A stretch of DNA of 63,437 nucleotides, from NCBI GenBank assembly GCA_013287775.1, contig JABDDE010000005.1:1-63437 (forward strand), written 5' to 3'. Both the position numbers and the translations under genes were made by a program. Each line of letters opens with the position of its first letter. The stretch's first letter is position 1. Under the pieces are notes generated by a model. It was not told the DNA's origin, searched no databases, and saw nothing but the letters and a program-made list of their open reading frames with translations. The DNA is from Chlamydiota bacterium (GTDB lineage: Bacteria; Chlamydiota; Chlamydiia; Chlamydiales; FEN-1388). Positions 3,773 through 41,311 of the stretch are shown here, in pieces.

Positions 3773-3965
3773 CCCAGGGCGTTGCCCCAATGGTGTGAAC
3801 TTAAGGAAAACGCATAACACATCATGCTTCTAGTTGATATGAATTCCACCGCTGCCGCGGTGGGGTCCATATTAGTCACACAACTCGGAGACTAAAAGAT
3901 GTGTGGTAAAGTGTGTCGGTCACGCGGGGCTAATGAGCTTCCGACGCTACCGCGTCGGCGTCCTG
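3773..3965. repeat. Composite REP/MITE debris
   Basis: Truncated CCCAGGGCGTTGCCC, then CAATGGTGTGAACTTAAG end, then REP-A pieces (CACGCGGGGCTAATG). Confidence 0.7.
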
Positions 3966-22357: not shown

Positions 22358-22980
22358 TGGGTTTCGCTGCTACCGCAGCTCTATTGTATTTCATGCACCT
22401 GTAACCCCACGTTGCGCCGGCCGTAGCGCAGGCGCTACGGCCGTGCTCCACGCGGGGCTAATGAGCTTCCACCGCTGCCGCGGTGGGGTCCATATCAACT
22501 AGAAGCATGATATGTTATGCGTTTTCCTTAAGTTGACACCATTGGGCGTGCCCCGGGCTGTTACACTTTTTGGCCTTCAGCCAACTTGCGGAACCTTTTC
22601 TCGTTATTTAAAATTCGATTCAATCACATGAGTGTGGCTACCTTAAAAACACTCAATCCGACCGGTGTTTGCGCCCACAGATTTTTCTTCAACGGTAGCA
22701 TATCATTCTGTGATTTGTCAACAAGAGAAAAATGTAAAGCGCACACAAGAGATATTTAAAACTGTCGCTGCTACCCCACGTTCCATTCGGGCTCGCTCTC
22801 GCTCGTCCTCATTGCACGCGGGGCTAAAACATAAATTTCGTCACTGCCGCGGCGGGACGTATTGTCCATCCTCGCTAAAATTCCTCACGTCTTTAAGAAA
22901 AAATGCATCTAGCACCCCTAACGCCTCTGACAAGCTCTCTCTGTAAGCTATCTCCTGTAGCTCTCCCTGTTAAAAAAAGC
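22358..22980. repeat. REP-A/REP-B cluster with IS4-like end and a solo copy of the 16.7/17.25-kb repeat
   Basis: CCCCACGTT..CACGCGGGGCTA x2; CTTAAGTTGACACCATTG; ACGCCTCTGACAAGCTCTCTCTGTAAGC. Confidence 0.8.
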
Positions 22981-30176: not shown

Positions 30177-33100
30177 ATGTTTGAAGCTATCAATACCAAG
30201 GAAAGTTTTGCAAAACGAGAAGAGCGCGTCCTGCAGTTTTGGCAGGACAATGCAATTCTCCCTAAGTCTATAGCACAAAGAGAGGGAGGACCTCTCTTTT
30301 CTCATTATGATGGGCCACCTTTTGCAACGGGACTCCCCCACTATGGCCACTTGCTTGCTGGAACCATTAAGGATGTGGTTCTTCGCTACAAAACGATGAA
30401 GGGGTATTATGTTCCTCGTCGTATAGGTTGGGACTGCCATGGGCTGCCTGTTGAAAACGAAATTGAAAAGGCATTTAACCTCTCTGGCGCTGCCTCCATA
30501 GAAGCATTTGGTATTGCGGCATTTAATGAAGAGTGTCGAAAGATCGTACTTAGGTATACAAGTGAATGGAAGAAAACGACGCTCCGAATGGGCCGCTTTG
30601 TGGATTTTGATACAACCTACCGAACTATGGATCTTCCTTTTATGGAATCGGTATGGTGGGTGTTTCAGTCGCTCTATAAAAAAGGATTAATTTATGAAGG
30701 GTATAAAGTAATGCCCTTCTCTGCAAAATTGGGGACTCCTCTTTCTAATTTTGAAGCTTCTGAAAATTATAAAGACGTTGACGATCCCTCCCTTACAGTA
30801 GCCATCGAACTTCTTGGCGAAGAAAATACCTTCGTACTTGTCTGGACGACAACACCGTGGACCCTTGTTTCTAACATGGCTATCACTGTAGGCGCAGAAA
30901 TTGACTATGTGATGATTCAAGAGAGTGCAAGCAGTAAAAAATACATCCTCGCGCGCCAGTGCCTTGATCGCTACTTTAAAGACAGTGTAGCGTATCAAAT
31001 ACTCAATGAATATTCAGGCAAAGCCCTTGTTGGCAAGCGTTATAAGCCCCTTTTCCCCCATTTTCAAGACTATGCAATGAAGGGCGCCTTTCACATTATT
31101 GCTGACGGTTTTGTCACCATCGATGAAGGCACTGGCCTTGTCCATACTGCCCCTGCCTTTGGTGAAGCCGACTTTTACGCCTGTGAAAAACATAAAATCC
31201 CTCTCGTTTGCCCTGTTGATCAAAATGGCCAATTTACAAACGCTGTTCCCGAATTTGTAGGCCGTTTTGTCAAAGACTGCGATAAAGACATTATTAAAAT
31301 GCTGAAAGATCGAGGCAGCGTCTTTCGCCATGAAAACTGCCGCCACCGCTACCCCTTTTGCTGGCGCTCCGATACCCCACTTATCTATAAAGTTGTGGCG
31401 ACCTGGTTTGTTGCAGTGGAAAAAATCAAAGATAAAATTTTAAATTCAAACGAACAAATCTACTGGATGCCCGAGCATATCAAGTATGGCCGATTTGGAA
31501 AATGGCTTGAGGGGGCACGTGACTGGGCAATTAGCCGCAATCGTTATTGGGGAACACCTATACCTATCTGGAGAGCCGACGATGGGGAGATAGTTGTATT
31601 TGGCAGCAAGCAAGAACTCGAAGATGCTACGAGTACAAAGATCCAGGATTTGCATCGCCATTTTATTGATGAGCTGACCTTTACCAAAAATGGCAAGCTC
31701 TTTCGCCGTATTCCTGAGGTATTTGACTGCTGGTTTGAATCAGGATCCATGCCCTATGCAGAGCAGCATTATCCCTTCGAGAATGAAACACATTTTAGGA
31801 CAGCATTTCCTGCTGACTTTATTGCAGAAGGGCTGGATCAAACACGAGGCTGGTTTTATACACTGACAGTGCTGGCGACAGCGCTTTTTGAAAAGCCTGC
31901 GTTTAAGAATGTCATCGTTAATGGAATTATCTTAGCGGCAGATGGCAACAAGATGTCAAAGCGGCTTAAAAACTATCCTGACCCGCAAGAAGTGATCGAT
32001 ATCTACGGTGCTGATAGTATTCGCTTGTATATGCTGAGTAGCCCTGCTGTGAAGGCCGATGATCTCTGTTTTTCTAAACCAGGCGTGGAACTCGTACTTC
32101 GCCACGTGCTTTTGCCTCTCTGGAATGCCTATAGCTTTTTTATCACCTATGCCCGCTTAAACTCGTGGGAAGCCGAGGCGATCGACCCCACCTTCACGCC
32201 TCAGGCAGCCATCGATCGCTGGATGCTCTCACTGGTCCATAAACTCATTCACGATGTGGAAGGGGCCATGGATCGCTATGATTTGAGCCATGCTGTGCAT
32301 CCCTTTGTGGATTTTATTGACCAGCTTACAAACTGGTATATACGCCGCTCAAGGAGGCGTTTTTGGAGTGATGAGGCAACCCGTGATCGCCATGAAGCGC
32401 ATAAAACGCTCTATACCGTTCTCGTCCACCTTGTAAAGATTGCAGCACCCTACGTGCCCTTTATTGCAGAAGAGATGTATCTGAACCTCAGGCTCAAAAC
32501 CAACCCTGAGTCTGTACATCTTACACACTTTCCACAGTATGTGGCAAGCGAACGGGATCTTTTCCTAGAAGAAGTGATGGCTACCGTACAGCGTGCTGTC
32601 AGCCTTGGTCACAGCCTGCGCAAGGAAAAACAGCTCAAAGTGCGCCAGCCACTAGCGAGGGCCTTTATTATCTCGGCAAATAGGCGAAACATAGAGCTCT
32701 TAGAACAGGAAAAGCAGCTTATAGCCGATGAGCTCAACGTGCAAGAAGTGGTGTTTTCAACTGATGAAAGTGGGTTCGTACGGCTACAAGCAAAGCCCAA
32801 TTTCCGCCTGCTTGGCAAAAAAATTGGCAAGCTCATGAAGCAGGCTCACGCTGCAATTGATGCATTTTCCCAAGAAGAGCTTAACAAAATCATGCAAGGC
32901 GGGACGCTGACGCTTATTCTCGAGGGGCAGCAAGTGGTGCTTTTACCTGAAGATGTAGCTGTCGAGCGCATTGTGAAAGAGGATCTTGTTGCTGCCAACA
33001 GTGAAGATATCACGGTTGCCCTTGATACAGCACTCACCCCAGAGCTGATCTCTGTAGGCATTGCCCGCGAGTTTGTAAACCGTGTGAACACGTTGCGCAA

Positions 33101-33314
33101 GGAGAAGAATTTCAATATTTCTGACCGCATTCACCTCACGGTCGCTGCCCCTGCCGAAATCGAGCAGGCACTCAAGGCACACGAAGCCTTTATTGCGAGC
33201 GAAATACTGGCACTCTCGCTTACCTTTGCCCCAAATGACGGCGATGTGTGCGACATTAACGAGCAGTCTGTACGGGTGGAAATTCTACGACCCCTCGCGA
33301 GCTCGGGGCTGTAG
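30177..33314 (+). CDS. ileS: Isoleucyl-tRNA synthetase (type 2)
   Basis: DGPPFATGLPHYGH, WTTTPWT, KMSKR. Confidence 0.97.
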   Translation: MFEAINTKESFAKREERVLQFWQDNAILPKSIAQREGGPLFSHYDGPPFATGLPHYGHLLAGTIKDVVLRYKTMKGYYVPRRIGWDCHGLPVENEIEKAFNLSGAASIEAFGIAAFNEECRKIVLRYTSEWKKTTLRMGRFVDFDTTYRTMDLPFMESVWWVFQSLYKKGLIYEGYKVMPFSAKLGTPLSNFEASENYKDVDDPSLTVAIELLGEENTFVLVWTTTPWTLVSNMAITVGAEIDYVMIQESASSKKYILARQCLDRYFKDSVAYQILNEYSGKALVGKRYKPLFPHFQDYAMKGAFHIIADGFVTIDEGTGLVHTAPAFGEADFYACEKHKIPLVCPVDQNGQFTNAVPEFVGRFVKDCDKDIIKMLKDRGSVFRHENCRHRYPFCWRSDTPLIYKVVATWFVAVEKIKDKILNSNEQIYWMPEHIKYGRFGKWLEGARDWAISRNRYWGTPIPIWRADDGEIVVFGSKQELEDATSTKIQDLHRHFIDELTFTKNGKLFRRIPEVFDCWFESGSMPYAEQHYPFENETHFRTAFPADFIAEGLDQTRGWFYTLTVLATALFEKPAFKNVIVNGIILAADGNKMSKRLKNYPDPQEVIDIYGADSIRLYMLSSPAVKADDLCFSKPGVELVLRHVLLPLWNAYSFFITYARLNSWEAEAIDPTFTPQAAIDRWMLSLVHKLIHDVEGAMDRYDLSHAVHPFVDFIDQLTNWYIRRSRRRFWSDEATRDRHEAHKTLYTVLVHLVKIAAPYVPFIAEEMYLNLRLKTNPESVHLTHFPQYVASERDLFLEEVMATVQRAVSLGHSLRKEKQLKVRQPLARAFIISANRRNIELLEQEKQLIADELNVQEVVFSTDESGFVRLQAKPNFRLLGKKIGKLMKQAHAAIDAFSQEELNKIMQGGTLTLILEGQQVVLLPEDVAVERIVKEDLVAANSEDITVALDTALTPELISVGIAREFVNRVNTLRKEKNFNISDRIHLTVAAPAEIEQALKAHEAFIASEILALSLTFAPNDGDVCDINEQSVRVEILRPLASSGL

Positions 33315-33340
33315 AAAAATAATTCATACATCAGGCGACT

Positions 33341-33996
33341 GTTGGCTAGGGTGTCGCTGCTACCGCAACCCCACGCTGCCGCCGGCCGTAGCGCGAGCGC
33401 GCTGCGGCCGTGCTCCACGCGGGGCTAATGAATTTCGCCGCTACCGCATACGCGTCAGGCTAAGGCTGGAGTGGTGTCAACTTAAAAAAACTTGTAACCA
33501 ATCAGAGCCGAGCCACGGTAGTGGCGAAATGCAGCTCTAGCCCCGCGTGCAGTGAAGGCTGCGCGCATCGCGCGCAGGCCGAGCGGAACGTGGGGTTTAT
33601 GAGGCATCAATAAAAACGGAGCTGCGGTAGCAGCGACACAGAAATGTGTCTGCAACGACAATTATGTGCACTGACTAGGTCAAATACAATGGGTTTCGCT
33701 GCTGCCGCAGCTCTCTGTTTATTTCATGCTCCACAACCCCACGTTCCTTCGATCGCACGCAATGCGTGCGCTCTTCAGTCACGCGGGGCTAATGAATTCC
33801 ACCGCTACCGCGGTGGGGTCCATATTGGTCACAACATGGTAAGGCTCTATACATTATCCCAATGGCCTTAGCCTGATGCGTATGCCGCTGCCGCGGCTCG
33901 GCTCCGATTGGCTGCAGGTTTCTTTTTAAGTTGACACCATTGGCCTTTTAGCCTGATGCATATATGCTGTCGCAGCGGAAGCGCATTAGCCCCGCG
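33341..33996. repeat. REP-A nest containing IS4-like MITE 33447-33884
   Basis: Multiple GCTGCTACCGCAGC and CCCCACG..CGCGGGG units; TIR CATACGC(G/A)TCAGGCTAAGG; 9-bp flanks CCGCTACCG / CCGCTGCCG. Confidence 0.8.
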
Positions 33997-34234
33997 ACAG
34001 ATGTTTCCCTTTTCGTCCATAATGGCGATAAAAGTTGTTTTCATAGAAACATCAAATCCTGCATAATAGGTCATAGCTTACTCCTGAGTTGTTTTGGGCC
34101 GTTTGAGCCCTTGGTTTAATCGTGGAGGGTAAATATTGCCCTCTGACGTGTACTTTCAAGTACGACTTTAACTTAAGGAGTAGGCTTTTTTTGCCACCCC
34201 TAATTGCGCCGCGTTAGCGCGCAATTAGGGTATG
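33997..34234 (-). mobile_element. Truncated IS110-family element (5' leader plus first ~26 codons)
   Basis: MTYYAGFDVSMKTTFIAIMDEKG resembles the IS110 DEDD N-terminus; AGGAG RBS; flanks rejoin into one REP. Confidence 0.75.
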
Positions 34235-34556
34235 TGACTGTAGGGAATGCGTTGCGTGCGACCGAGAGAACGTGGGATTGCGGTAGCAGCGACACCCATG
34301 GTATGACCGTAGGGTGTTGTGCATTGTGCTATGACGAGGGCACGGAGACAATGTATAGAGCCGTACCACGTTGTGGCCAATATGGACCCCACTGCGGCAG
34401 CAGTGGAATTCATTAGCCCCGCGTGGAGCACGGCCGTAGCGCGCTCGCGCTACGGCCGGCGGAACGTGGGGTTACAGGGGCGTAAATAAAAACAGAGCTG
34501 CGGTAGCAGCGACACTCACAGCATAGAAACGCATGGTATGAGGAGAAAAATCACAG

Positions 34557-35009
34557 ATGACACATTCCTATCGGGTACATTTTTACCATTGTATTTGGTC
34601 GACAAAACAACGATGCGCATTCATCATACCTAAAGTGCAAATGCATCTCTACACATACATAAATGGCATTATTACAAATCAATCTGGTAACTTGTTAGAA
34701 ATTGGTGGTATGCCAGATCATGTACATTTATTACTAAAACTAAGCGACGACCAGCAGTATTCTCATTTTATTCGGAACGTGAAAGCCAGTTCTTCATCAT
34801 GGATACATAAAAATTTTCCTGATATGCAAGAGTTTGCTTGGCAAGAAGGATATGGATCTTTTTCTGTGAGTTACTCCGCCCTAAAAACTGTTCAAAATTA
34901 TATACAAAACCAAGAAAAACATCATAAAAATATGACATTCGAACAAGAATATCGGCGTCTCTTGCAATTGCATGACACGCCATATGATGAGCGTTTTGTT
35001 GTTGGATAG
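34557..35009 (+). CDS. tnpA: IS200/IS605-type Y1 HUH transposase flanked by inverted REPs (RAYT-like)
   Basis: WSTKQR, DHVH (HUH), WQEGY, NYIQNQ; no tnpB; REP-A in opposite orientations at 34413-34516 and 35011-35079. Confidence 0.88.
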   Translation: MTHSYRVHFYHCIWSTKQRCAFIIPKVQMHLYTYINGIITNQSGNLLEIGGMPDHVHLLLKLSDDQQYSHFIRNVKASSSSWIHKNFPDMQEFAWQEGYGSFSVSYSALKTVQNYIQNQEKHHKNMTFEQEYRRLLQLHDTPYDERFVVG

Positions 35010-35010
35010 G

Positions 35011-35560
35011 GTGTCGCTGCTACCGCAACCCCACGTTTCGCCGGCCGTAGCGCGGGCGCGCTACGGCCGCGCTCCACGCCATACTTTACCACACATCTTT
35101 AATAATGGCGTAAACCCCAAGGCTGGAGTGATGTCAACTTAAAGAAACTTGTAACCAATCAGGACCTCGCCACGGTAGTGGCGAAATTTGCCGCTCTAGC
35201 CCCGCGTGCAGTGAAGGCTGCGCGCATCGCGCGCAGGCCGAGCGGAACGTGGGGTTTATGAGGCATCAATAAAAACGGAGCTGCGGTAGCAGCGACACAG
35301 AAATGTGTCTGCAACGACAATTATGTGCACTGACTAGGTCAAATACAATGGGTTTCGCTGCTGCCGCAGCTCTCTGTTTATTTCATGCTCCACAACCCCA
35401 CGTTCCTTCGATCGCACGCAATGCGTGCGCTCTTCAGTCACGCGGGGCTAATGAATTCCACCGCTACCGCGGTGGGGTCCATATCAACTAGAAGCATACT
35501 ATGTTACGCGTTTGCCTTGAGTTGACACCACTCCAGCCTTAGACTGATGCGTATGCCGCT
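35011..35560. repeat. REP-A nest, largely a direct repeat of 33341-33835
   Basis: About 35120-35484 closely matches 33462-33835. Confidence 0.85.
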
Positions 35561-35678
35561 GCCAGTGAAATATAAATATGCTAGAACTGACAACGCGCTC
35601 GACAACATCGCTTGCAGCTCTTTTCGTCATGTGCTATTTTCCTTTCGTAAGAAAGGAAAATGGCATATGACGTTATCA

Positions 35679-36800
35679 TTATTCCACTTCCCTAAGCTTG
35701 CGAGAGGACAACATCCCCCATACCTTACGGCCAATGTTGACTACCGTGAGCACAATGAGCGCAGGATACATAGTCTCCAGGATTGGCCCTAAAAACTGTG
35801 CAATACCAGAAAATTCAAGAGTCGACACAAGAAAAGCCACTATAAGGGTGCTCACTATCGCCGTGGTGTTGCCAATTTTTTCGCGAAAAACCTCTGTACG
35901 CAAAAATTCTGCAAACAGAGAAGTGAGTGCAATAGCCGTTGTCAAACATGCTAACACTACAGCAACGCATATGCAGGGAGCAGCAAAGAAGCCGAGTGAG
36001 GCAATTGCCACCTTGCCAAACATCTCTTGCGGACGAGCACCCTCCAGGAGAGGCGCATAGAACCAGCCAAGTAATACCAGAGCAAAGTATACCACATATA
36101 AGAGCACTGCCCCTACTACTGATGCTTTTATAAAAAATTTTAACGGTGACCCTCCTTCGCCTCGTTCAGAGCGTGTCTGCAACAGGTGTTTGATGACAAA
36201 TCCTGAAAAGAAGAACGCAGCCACCAAATCCATCGTCTGATATCCTTTAAAAAAACCATTTGTAAAGGCCACAAAACCTTCAGACTGCATTGGAGCAGAT
36301 ACTGGAGCCTGATAGAGGCTGACACCGGTAATGCTTGCTACAGCAAGTAATAAAAAGGGCGTAAGGAACACCCCCAAGATCGACACAATCTTGTTTTTAT
36401 TTGCCGTTAACAGATAAATGAGTACGCAGAGTACCAAGCTCGTCACTGGAAGCGACATAGATGGAAACAGTGGAAGACAGGCACCATGAATCACGGTGAG
36501 GCAACGCGCAAGCACTCCAAATGGTCCCATAAGCCCAAGTGCAATAAAAGAAAATATAAATATCCCCTTTTTCCCGAAATAACTAAAAAATTCCTTAATC
36601 TCGCCATTATATAGTGCCATACCCAGCATCCCAAGAAATGGAAAAATCACACAGGTACAGAGCACGCCCAATGAAGCCATACCATAATGGCCTCCACTTT
36701 CCATACCTATCGCTAAGGGGAAGACGAGATTGCCCGATCCGAAGAACATCGAAAAGAGCGCAAACCCCGTGCTTAGTATCAGTAACGTTTCTTTTTTCAT
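35679..36800 (-). CDS. brnQ: Branched-chain amino acid transporter
   Basis: FSMFFGSGNLVFP, GYQTMD, ACLTTAI. Confidence 0.92.
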   Translation of the reverse strand: MKKETLLILSTGFALFSMFFGSGNLVFPLAIGMESGGHYGMASLGVLCTCVIFPFLGMLGMALYNGEIKEFFSYFGKKGIFIFSFIALGLMGPFGVLARCLTVIHGACLPLFPSMSLPVTSLVLCVLIYLLTANKNKIVSILGVFLTPFLLLAVASITGVSLYQAPVSAPMQSEGFVAFTNGFFKGYQTMDLVAAFFFSGFVIKHLLQTRSERGEGGSPLKFFIKASVVGAVLLYVVYFALVLLGWFYAPLLEGARPQEMFGKVAIASLGFFAAPCICVAVVLACLTTAIALTSLFAEFLRTEVFREKIGNTTAIVSTLIVAFLVSTLEFSGIAQFLGPILETMYPALIVLTVVNIGRKVWGMLSSRKLREVE

Positions 36801-40927: not shown

Positions 40928-41222
40928 GGTTTCGCTGCTACCGCAGCTCTGTTTTTATTTATTCGCCTATAACCCCACGTTCCACGCAGGCTGTGCGCAT
41001 AGCGCACTGCCGCGTTTCACGCGGGGCTAACCCCACGTTCCGCTCGGCCCGCGCGCTAGCGCCGCGGCCTTCACTGCACGCGGGGCTAGAGCTGCATTTC
41101 GCCACTACCGTGGCTCGGTTCTGATTGGTTACAAAACCCCACGTTCCACGCAGGCTGTGCGCATAGCGCACTGCCGCGTTTCACGCGGGGCTAACCACTG
41201 ACCGCCGCTACCGCGGCGGGGC
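40928..41222. repeat. REP-A array (three clamp units)
   Basis: CCCCACGTTCC...CACGCGGGGCTA at about 40973, 41031 and 41137. Confidence 0.88.
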
Positions 41223-41311
41223 TCTACAGCGCAAAGTCGTCTTTAGACATCTTAGGCATGGCAGAATAAGCACAAATATAGTATACTCTTATTTAAATCA
41301 TTTATACAAGT

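Follow-up and report, generated by a model that had tools for sequence, protein, structure and literature searches.

Repetitive extragenic palindromes (REPs) and REP-associated tyrosine transposases (RAYTs) are the main example of a transposase that is kept by its host for long periods alongside a population of non-autonomous repeats; such systems are described for enzymes of class 2, mostly from Proteobacteria. In obligate intracellular lineages, mobile DNA is expected to be scarce. The subject of this study is an intact Y1 HUH transposase-like gene and the repeats around it in a chlamydial contig of 63,437 nucleotides (JABDDE010000005.1, the window; contig C5 below). The assembly to which it belongs (GCA_013287775.1; G000 below) is a draft metagenome bin of 2.17 Mb in 128 contigs and is 73% complete. 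The locus is probably a REPtron-like system, in which a low-copy, selectively maintained Y1 HUH enzyme of subclass 1.2, an endonuclease/ligase of single-stranded DNA, is accompanied by its own family of structured repeats.

In the parts of Quentin et al. (2018; PMC6006769) used here, subclass 1.2 is described as low in copy number, devoid of the ends of the insertion sequence (IS) IS200, found mostly in Cyanobacteria and Bacteroidetes, and not associated with REPs. Inverted repeats flanking Y1 genes are known from the TIRYT/TIRtron systems, and the sections of Di Nocera et al. (2013; PMC3733652) on which we rely report a "plethora" of TIRYTs in the planctomycete R. baltica. GTAG repeats in the superphylum of Planctomycetes, Verrucomicrobia and Chlamydiae (PVC) are mentioned in the same paper, the main text of which, as far as used here, names no chlamydial genus. 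A literature search, which left subscription journals mostly outside, returned no report linking subclass 1.2, or any Y1 gene in Chlamydiae, to repeats; the supplements of both papers could list such cases.

The gene (34557–35009, forward strand) encodes a protein of 150 amino acids that matches Pfam Y1_Tnp with an E-value of 4e-28 (98.4 bits) and carries the motifs DHVH, WQ and YIQNQEKHH (Y115-x3-Q119-x2-H122-H123). Across 16 aligned homologues, H55 and H57 of the HUH motif, W95-Q96, Y115, Q119 and H122-H123 were invariant, and the C-terminal tail was conserved to its last residues. A first-pass annotation of the window had proposed a RAYT-like transposase. In the strict sense, this assignment was not borne out: the tyrosine motif of class 2, Y-x3-NP, is absent, with YIQNQEKHH in its place, and the protein reached 32.5 bits with the RAYT equivalog NF047646, below the cut-off of 80 (31.8 and 27.1 bits for the two gene copies in the genome search). 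With the IS200 equivalog NF033573, it scored 71.8 bits, above the cut-off of 55. A sequence search of solved structures returned the transposases of ISDra2, IS608 and archaeal IS200 elements (E-values of 8e-11 to 5e-5), and E. coli RayT was not among the nine matches. When an AlphaFold (AF2) model with a predicted local distance difference test score (pLDDT) of 89 was submitted to Foldseek, ISDra2, IS608 and IS200 TnpA were found at E-values of ~1e-8 and E. coli RayT at rank 30 (1.4e-4). Sequence and fold are those of single-stranded DNA transposases that bind hairpins.

The phylogenetic comparison with RAYT and IS200 TnpA that the annotation had suggested was made as a quick tree of 84 rows, with SH-aLRT support and no bootstrap; its sole class 2 reference was E. 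coli RayT, the branch of which is very long. In this tree, 79 sequences of the present Y1 family formed one group (SH-aLRT 83) far from RayT. Four IS200/IS605 TnpAs, three of them adjoining tnpB, formed a separate group (SH-aLRT 90). The signature Y-x3-Q-x2-HH was present in 78 of the 79 sequences, the exception being L065. Because its motifs, length and conserved tail match the description by Quentin et al. (2018), the protein is assigned, on its sequence, to the IS200-proximal type TnpA-Y1 subclass 1.2 and is not a canonical RAYT.

Two copies of the gene are present, one in the window and one on contig C49, with 85% amino acid and 88% nucleotide identity. They are sisters in the tree (SH-aLRT 100), and the 73%-complete assembly yielded no further Y1 gene. 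The ratio of nonsynonymous to synonymous divergence (dN/dS) between them is 0.15 at a dS of 0.44, the mark of purifying selection; both copies are therefore maintained and are not recent IS copies. No PF07282 match indicating tnpB was obtained in the assembly at its 73% completeness, with a control search that was positive in 8 of 14 known genomes. IS200-style same-strand ends are missing at the gene, the flanks of which are reverse complements of each other. The initial description of an intact Y1 HUH gene without tnpB thus holds, and in place of a multicopy gene with fixed IS200 ends, which the annotation had named as the contrary case, two diverged copies without same-strand ends were found.

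A BLAST search of the genome with 33300–35600 gave 1383 matches on 85 contigs, which cover the repeat parts 100- to 200-fold and the gene twice. An alignment of 167 copies delimited a core of 133 nucleotides, from which an nhmmer profile was built. An exact 27-nucleotide core, with just 1–5 matches, was too strict as a genome-wide marker because the gene-adjacent unit is a short form, and the profile was used instead. The profile search yielded 284 unit matches, 178 of them full length, which cover 32,154 bases or 1.5% of the assembly, an abundance far beyond chance. Set against each other, as had been proposed at the outset, gene copy number and repeat count are 2 and 284, that is, ~140 units per Y1 gene at a density of about 130 units per Mb. 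The units are dispersed outside genes: 10.8% of unit bases lie within open reading frames (ORFs) of 150 amino acids or more, compared to 84% for the genome.

Each unit is composed of a hairpin H1, a TAG-headed central hairpin and a hairpin H3, in this order. The repeat is not a REP of 20–40 nucleotides, but a three-hairpin composite of 133 nucleotides, usually found as a palindromic doublet of ~395 nucleotides. H1 has a stem of 7 bp and a loop GGTA in 102 units or GGCA in 67, and H3 a stem of 5 bp and a loop GGTA in 139 units or GGCA in 31, followed by GACAC or GAAAC. The central hairpin starts with an invariant TTAGCC head and is closed by an invariant 7-bp stem that is paired in 172–173 of 173 distinct copies; its stem also contains a fixed G.T pair (171/173). 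Two blocks of the unit, TTAGCCCCGCGTG and GAACGTGGGG, are at least 97% invariant. Among the 173 sequences, G-C (92) alternates with A-T (77) at H1 pair 9/22, and G-C (86) with A-T (85) at H1 pair 12/19. In H3, T-A (154) alternates with C-G (17) and G-C (160) with A-T (10). This covariation indicates that the hairpin structure is conserved through compensatory change.

The insert within the central hairpin, 35–43 nucleotides long, occurs in 118 different sequences among 163 units, 142 of which have inserts that fold much better than shuffles (z < -2). The mean DNA folding energy is -36.1 kcal/mol on the strand with the GGTA loops and -30.7 kcal/mol on the other; the stabler folding of the GGTA-loop strand fits the fixed G.T pair, which would be an A.C mismatch on the opposite strand. 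The units have diverged from one another: their median pairwise identity is 68%, and there are 173 distinct sequences among the 178 full-length copies. The H1 stem exists in two fully compensated versions of near-equal frequency (84 versus 77 units among the 173 distinct ones). One version is found in the unit upstream of the window's gene, the other in the units around the gene on C49, and on the basis of these three gene-adjacent units there may be one H1 subfamily per Y1 paralogue.

As the first-pass annotation had stated, the gene lies between inverted copies of the repeat. Upstream, a full 133-nucleotide unit (34383–34515, forward strand) has H3 nearest to the gene and ends 41 nucleotides before the ATG. 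Downstream, a truncated unit of the short form (35009–35082, reverse strand; profile match 35014–35082) starts at the stop codon and lacks the A-rich spacer and the H1 end. On C49, a full unit precedes the gene copy, and a second full unit, inverted, begins at the stop codon of that copy. H3 is the gene-nearest unit end at both copies. The short-form unit end has neither the A-rich spacer nor the 5' arm of H3, and its central stem is joined straight to the H3 loop half. This form was seen three times at the locus, at 33351–33375, 34271–34297 and 35011–35037, the last abutting the stop codon of the gene.

Genome-wide, neighbouring units form 54 convergent pairs with their H3 ends facing each other, compared to 18–19 pairs in each of the other orientations, and the spacer is mostly 51–54 nucleotides. 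Twenty-five strict doublets can be aligned over ~395 nucleotides, including outer arms that end in a common motif, and the whole doublet is one palindrome. The Y1 gene, between its inverted units, occupies the place of the doublet's spacer; the doublet spacers themselves have no clear similarity to the edges of the gene. Two convergent doublets are present at the locus. One spans 33506–33822 (units at 33506–33639, forward, and 33693–33822, reverse) and the other 35161–35481 (35161–35298, forward, and 35352–35481, reverse), each with a spacer of 53 nucleotides. A short repeat of 28 nucleotides (family D10, 96% identity) is located just outside these doublets, at 33865–33892 and 35536–35563, and the outer flanks of doublets genome-wide show raised conservation at a D10-type short repeat. 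This hints at a preferred insertion context or at another nested repeat.

Related genomes were examined for the same association. Twelve of 31 genomes (G000 counted) contain 1–3 protein matches each, and at all seven related loci inspected, the gene is placed between inverted hairpin-rich flanks. The layout of small hairpin, TAG-headed hairpin, small hairpin and gene is common to them; the sequence is different. TAG is kept in the heads of the relatives, which read TTAG, ATAG, CTAG or GTAG, and only the first base, invariably T in the units of this genome, varies. Flank units are dispersed in other genomes too, with 28 matches in G015, 8 in G031 and 46 in G032. Several chlamydial flanks carry central-stem blocks of the unit described here. 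Partial matches to this unit were found in four relatives, all of them gene carriers, and in none of 19 relatives without the gene.

A scan of named genomes gave 588 relatives, of which the best 80 loci were kept and 72 were testable; these relatives are not independent samples. Among the labels of the 80 loci are Chlamydiota, Planctomycetota, Acidobacteriota, Verrucomicrobiota and Bacteroidota. When the 300 nucleotides before the gene were compared with the 300 behind it, a significant inverted match was present at 51 of the 72 loci and at 13 of the 14 with a chlamydial label. A TAG that heads a stem of 6 bp or more and is oriented toward the gene was found upstream at 53 loci, downstream at 53 and on both sides at 41; in the opposite orientation, the corresponding numbers were 25, 28 and 15. 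Four loci (L021, L023, L027 and L072) come from metagenome-assembled genomes labelled Myxococcaceae, Francisellaceae, Gammaproteobacteria and Klebsiella. Contrary to these labels, the Y1 genes of L021, L023 and L027 fall among chlamydial sequences in the tree, and the flanks of L021 carry the chlamydial central-stem motif. The Klebsiella label, too, disagrees with the position in the tree. Mis-binned contigs or horizontal transfer are possible explanations for these conflicts.

Several features are shared with REPtrons, known with class 2 RAYTs and REP, BIME and REPIN repeats from E. coli, Pseudomonas and Stenotrophomonas. A low-copy Y1 HUH gene lies between inverted hairpin repeats; many copies of the repeat are scattered over extragenic positions, often as inverted doublets; its hairpin has a TAG-containing 5' head; and gene and repeat change together between genomes. 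The doublets resemble REPINs, the REP doublets of these systems, in having inverted units with a short spacer, a long hairpin and a diverged population of copies. The differences concern size, head and enzyme. A unit with two extra hairpins and a doublet of ~395 nucleotides contrast with 20–40 nucleotides for a REP and about 100 nucleotides for a REPIN, the head is TTAG and not the GT[AG]G of class 2, and the protein differs from RAYTs in the motif, profile score, fold rank and tree position given above. The way of working would be that of a REPtron with REPINs, but the enzyme stands outside the RAYT class.

The proteins of subclass 1.2 share the motifs DH[IV]H, WQ and Y-x3-Q-x2-HH, a length of about 148 amino acids, a conserved C-terminal tail, a low and diverged copy number and the lack of IS200-type ends with the enzyme studied here. 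Two points depart from the published account. The inverted, TAG-headed hairpin repeats seen at 51 of the 72 testable loci stand against the entry "REP: no", and the loci carry the labels of the phyla listed above, where the paper gives Cyanobacteria and Bacteroidetes. The repeat association is absent from the published description of the subclass; it changes the description and does not exclude the protein from the subclass. According to the part of Quentin et al. (2018; PMC6006769) that describes it, REPs were searched for automatically, with a GT[AG]G head as a precondition. Given that T, A, C or G can precede TAG in the present family, this requirement could explain why such repeats were missed earlier.

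The IS200/IS605 elements (IS608, ISDra2, IS200) provide the closest enzymes by profile, sequence and fold and share the Y-x3-Q motif. Their small one-strand hairpins are also comparable: H1 and H3 share one strand and one loop, in the manner of the hairpins at left and right ends. Unlike in these elements, the gene copies are not near-identical, the flanks are inverted, no tnpB was found, and the tree group is separate. TIRYTs are similar in that inverted repeats, some self-complementary and moderately amplified, flank Y1 genes, as described in the consulted sections of Di Nocera et al. (2013; PMC3733652). They differ in their enzymes: the 26 TIRYTs are distributed over subclasses 2.1, 2.2 and 2.5, with none in 1.2, in the classification available to us from Quentin et al. 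(PMC6006769).

The locus is bracketed by two long direct repeats. The left one (33340–33892) consists of a 10-nucleotide copy of the 3' end of the gene (33340–33349), a short-form unit (33356–33450, reverse strand), an outer arm and a convergent doublet, and the right one (35000–35563) is 93% identical to it (503 of 542 ungapped columns). A core of 296 nucleotides, corresponding to one doublet, is 100% identical. Both repeats open with the last about 10 nucleotides of the gene, followed by a short-form unit end (family D8, 97% identity). Among 194 unit ends genome-wide, this gene-end tag was found at two, the C49 gene itself and one doubtful case, and it was rejected as a general feature of the units. 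Owing to this rarity, the bracket is best read, from the sequence, as a local segmental duplication of the region downstream of the gene or a relic of a lost gene copy, and not as the way in which units spread. The long direct repeats beginning with the gene's 3' end that the annotation had pointed out are consequently real, but their tag is a local matter.

The assembly of this region was compared with public contigs of a sequencing run, X1, which contains 88% of sampled words and may be the window's own source. In X1, contigs are interrupted at every unit, and no contig extends across the locus. Four pieces are covered without differences, namely 32500–33375, 33866–34392, 34488–35036 and 35469–36300. 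The order of the pieces, the number of doublets and the separateness of the two 296-nucleotide copies are taken from the original assembly, and several alternative joints exist in X1, in repeats with short sides. Depth ranges from 79 to 190 between pieces and is ~97–113 for the gene piece. Three other runs (X2–X4, with 5–7% of words) from separate groundwater, lake-water and soil studies contain short contigs on the units and on the IS110 stub described below. Some of their unit matches show 0 differences over 61–100 nucleotides, and none lies on unique flanks. The unit family may occur in related organisms elsewhere; the shares of X2–X4 are too small for a conclusion.

By analogy with IS608 and ISDra2 TnpA and the E. 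coli transposase TnpA-REP, we infer that the Y1 enzyme moves or amplifies the repeats. It would bind the folded unit on the GGTA-loop strand when this strand is single-stranded, and the TAG-headed central hairpin would play the REP-like part in recognition. By cutting and rejoining through Tyr115, the enzyme would copy or move units or doublets in trans and leave its own gene in place. Binding, cleavage, mobilisation and strand choice are all transferred in this proposal from the characterised enzymes. The outer hairpins H1 and H3, on the same strand, resemble the left-end and right-end hairpins that are held by an IS200-type dimer.

A more far-reaching reading, which we regard as tentative and rather doubtful, is that subclass 1.2 as a whole is an unrecognised third lineage of repeat-mobilising, host-retained transposases, reaching across Chlamydiota, Planctomycetota, Acidobacteriota and other phyla, and a bridge between IS200 and RAYTs with a three-hairpin substrate. 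In that case, the outer hairpins might be IS200-like left and right sites for a dimer and the central hairpin the REP-like part. A pairing of paralogues with subfamilies could be part of it, with each enzyme possibly serving one H1 subfamily.

Several results weigh against a REPtron-like system. The units are of some age and divergence; just 5 duplicates of another copy are present among the 178 of full length, and no sign of recent unit bursts was found, in short-read assemblies that collapse identical repeats. No polymorphic filled-versus-empty site was found either. The orientation of units relative to local GC skew shows no bias, be it for all long units (40/44 versus 30/50; Fisher p 0.21) or for singletons (17/9 versus 10/11; p 0.25), albeit on draft contigs and with small numbers; the expected replication-strand signature is therefore not seen. 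Among the testable loci, 21 of 72 lack a significant inverted flank, and in G017, which has the gene, the flank repeat is present only at the gene (3 matches). The X1 contig that matches the second gene copy (aligning to 34545–35027 with 55 differences) has a depth of 16 compared to ~97–113, and the two copies may not reside in one genome at equal dosage or may come from related populations. Of the 14,267 bases of C49, only 2,348 have counterparts on other contigs, namely in the Y1 locus, in units and in paralogue-level matches of 67–78%. C49 is therefore not an obvious strain duplicate. Finally, the table of Quentin et al. (2018; Table 1, PMC6006769), as far as it was available to us, describes subclass 1.2 as without REPs.

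A rival reading is that the repeats have nothing to do with the gene and spread and persist, for example, as terminators, mRNA stabilisers, protein-binding sites or recombination products, with the gene merely sitting in a repeat cluster. The extragenic position, the strong folding, the age of the units and the lack of a direct sign of recent movement agree with such a role, and a function at the RNA level would likewise suit the fixed G.T pair and the asymmetry between strands. It is nevertheless improbable. The gene lies between inverted units at both copies in this genome, the same layout recurs, with flanks of differing sequence from genome to genome, at 13 of 14 chlamydia-labelled loci and 51 of 72 overall, and partial unit matches in relatives are confined to gene carriers. 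In addition, a scan of 33000–36000 with Rfam gave five matches with E-values up to 1, all well under the gathering scores. Somewhat less remote, but still unlikely, is an ordinary selfish IS of the IS200 family with long inverted ends, which would move the gene together with its flanks and leave the doublets as deletion derivatives similar to miniature inverted-repeat transposable elements (MITEs). The protein passes the IS200 model and comes nearest to the IS200/IS605 TnpAs in sequence, fold and tree position, the doublet has the shape of the gene locus minus the gene, two gene copies stand at unrelated loci, and 10 nucleotides of the gene end are kept in the left direct repeat. What argues against it is the divergence of the two copies under purifying selection. 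IS copies within one genome are near-identical, with a mean of 99.4% for subclass 1.1 in Table 1 of Quentin et al. (PMC6006769), from which we take this value alone. Moreover, the flanks are inverted and do not form same-strand left and right ends, the doublet spacers lack clear similarity to the gene edges, the tag is restricted to two unit ends, the units outnumber the gene by ~140 to one, and tnpB was not found in the 73%-complete assembly.

That the direct repeats, the perfect 296-nucleotide duplicate and the nest of repeats are partly an artefact of assembling a repeat-rich metagenome bin is very improbable. The breaks of the X1 contigs at every unit, the alternative joints, the uneven depth and the position of 36 of the 284 units within 300 nucleotides of a contig end would fit an artefact. 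Single contigs without differences, however, cover the end of the upstream housekeeping gene with the tag (32500–33375), the IS110 remnant (33866–34392), and the gene with both inner unit ends (34488–35036), and the gene-flank arrangement recurs on C49 and in other genomes. At stake are only the order and number of doublets, not the system. On balance, the anatomy and covariation of the units, their extragenic dispersal, the linkage of gene and repeat here and in relatives, and the purifying selection on the gene, all of them direct observations, argue for the REPtron-like system as the probable reading.

IS110-family elements are known to insert into REP sequences, and the annotation had suggested that the repeats serve as targets for other elements. 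An ORF at 33868–34074 (reverse strand) resembles the start of an IS110-family transposase. The remnant (33985–34237, reverse strand; 27-amino-acid match to a paralogue on contig C41) comprises the first ~26–30 codons, from 34074 down to ~33985, and the upstream non-coding end of the element (34075–~34237). It lies in a unit (33967–34294, forward strand) that is split in its central stem into 33967–33996 (model positions 14–42) and 34238–34294 (model positions 53–132), with ~240 nucleotides of foreign DNA between the parts. The paralogue on C41 (1–1470), with 401 amino acids and the domains DEDD_Tnp_IS110 and Transposase_20, is the only full one in the assembly, and its element likewise abuts a unit cut in the central stem, at a contig end. 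At both sites, the unit is cut after CAC and the element has the same orientation relative to the unit. The parallel to IS110 elements that target REPs is evident in that both elements stand at units cut in the central stem. It is limited by the number of cases, two with one at a contig end. The two sites thus support, and do not prove, the idea that units are landing sites for IS110 elements.

The repeat copies that had been noted at 3.9, 22.4, 22.8 and 41 kb of the window were recovered with the profile, all on the reverse strand. They are a fragment with the H1 end (3919–3963; model positions 3–46), a full unit (22361–22492), a partial unit (22753–22857; model positions 6–110) and a cluster of three overlapping or adjacent matches (40929–41224). 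The neighbours of the Y1 locus are unrelated housekeeping genes: the isoleucyl-tRNA synthetase (IleRS) gene, which ends at 33314, and a branched-chain amino acid transporter gene (35679–36800, reverse strand). The G+C content is 54% for 33331–34556, 36% for the Y1 gene and 44% for the genome.

A chlamydial host had been assumed from the start, and this was corroborated by IleRS. Its closest match shows 73% identity, and the best named matches, from Chlamydiales and Parachlamydia, lie at 64–65%; the host is, by this marker, an environmental chlamydia without close sequenced kin and outside Chlamydiaceae. The accompanying statement that Chlamydiaceae are poor in repeats holds for that family and does not extend to environmental chlamydiae, as the Waddlia genome contains 4.9% repeats; IS200 is unmentioned in the sections of that report used here (PMC2878342).

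A REPtron-like arrangement thus appears in an obligate intracellular lineage, and on the branch closest to true IS200 transposases, which the only systematic survey recorded as free of repeats. If the enzyme acts on the units, the domestication of Y1 transposases together with repeats would have taken place more than once, or earlier than thought. The unit, with its invariant blocks, two covarying hairpins and fixed G.T pair, would then be a compact substrate in which to follow the evolution of hairpin recognition from IS ends to REPs. Such activity would also account, in part, for the repeat load at which the assemblies of environmental chlamydiae break.

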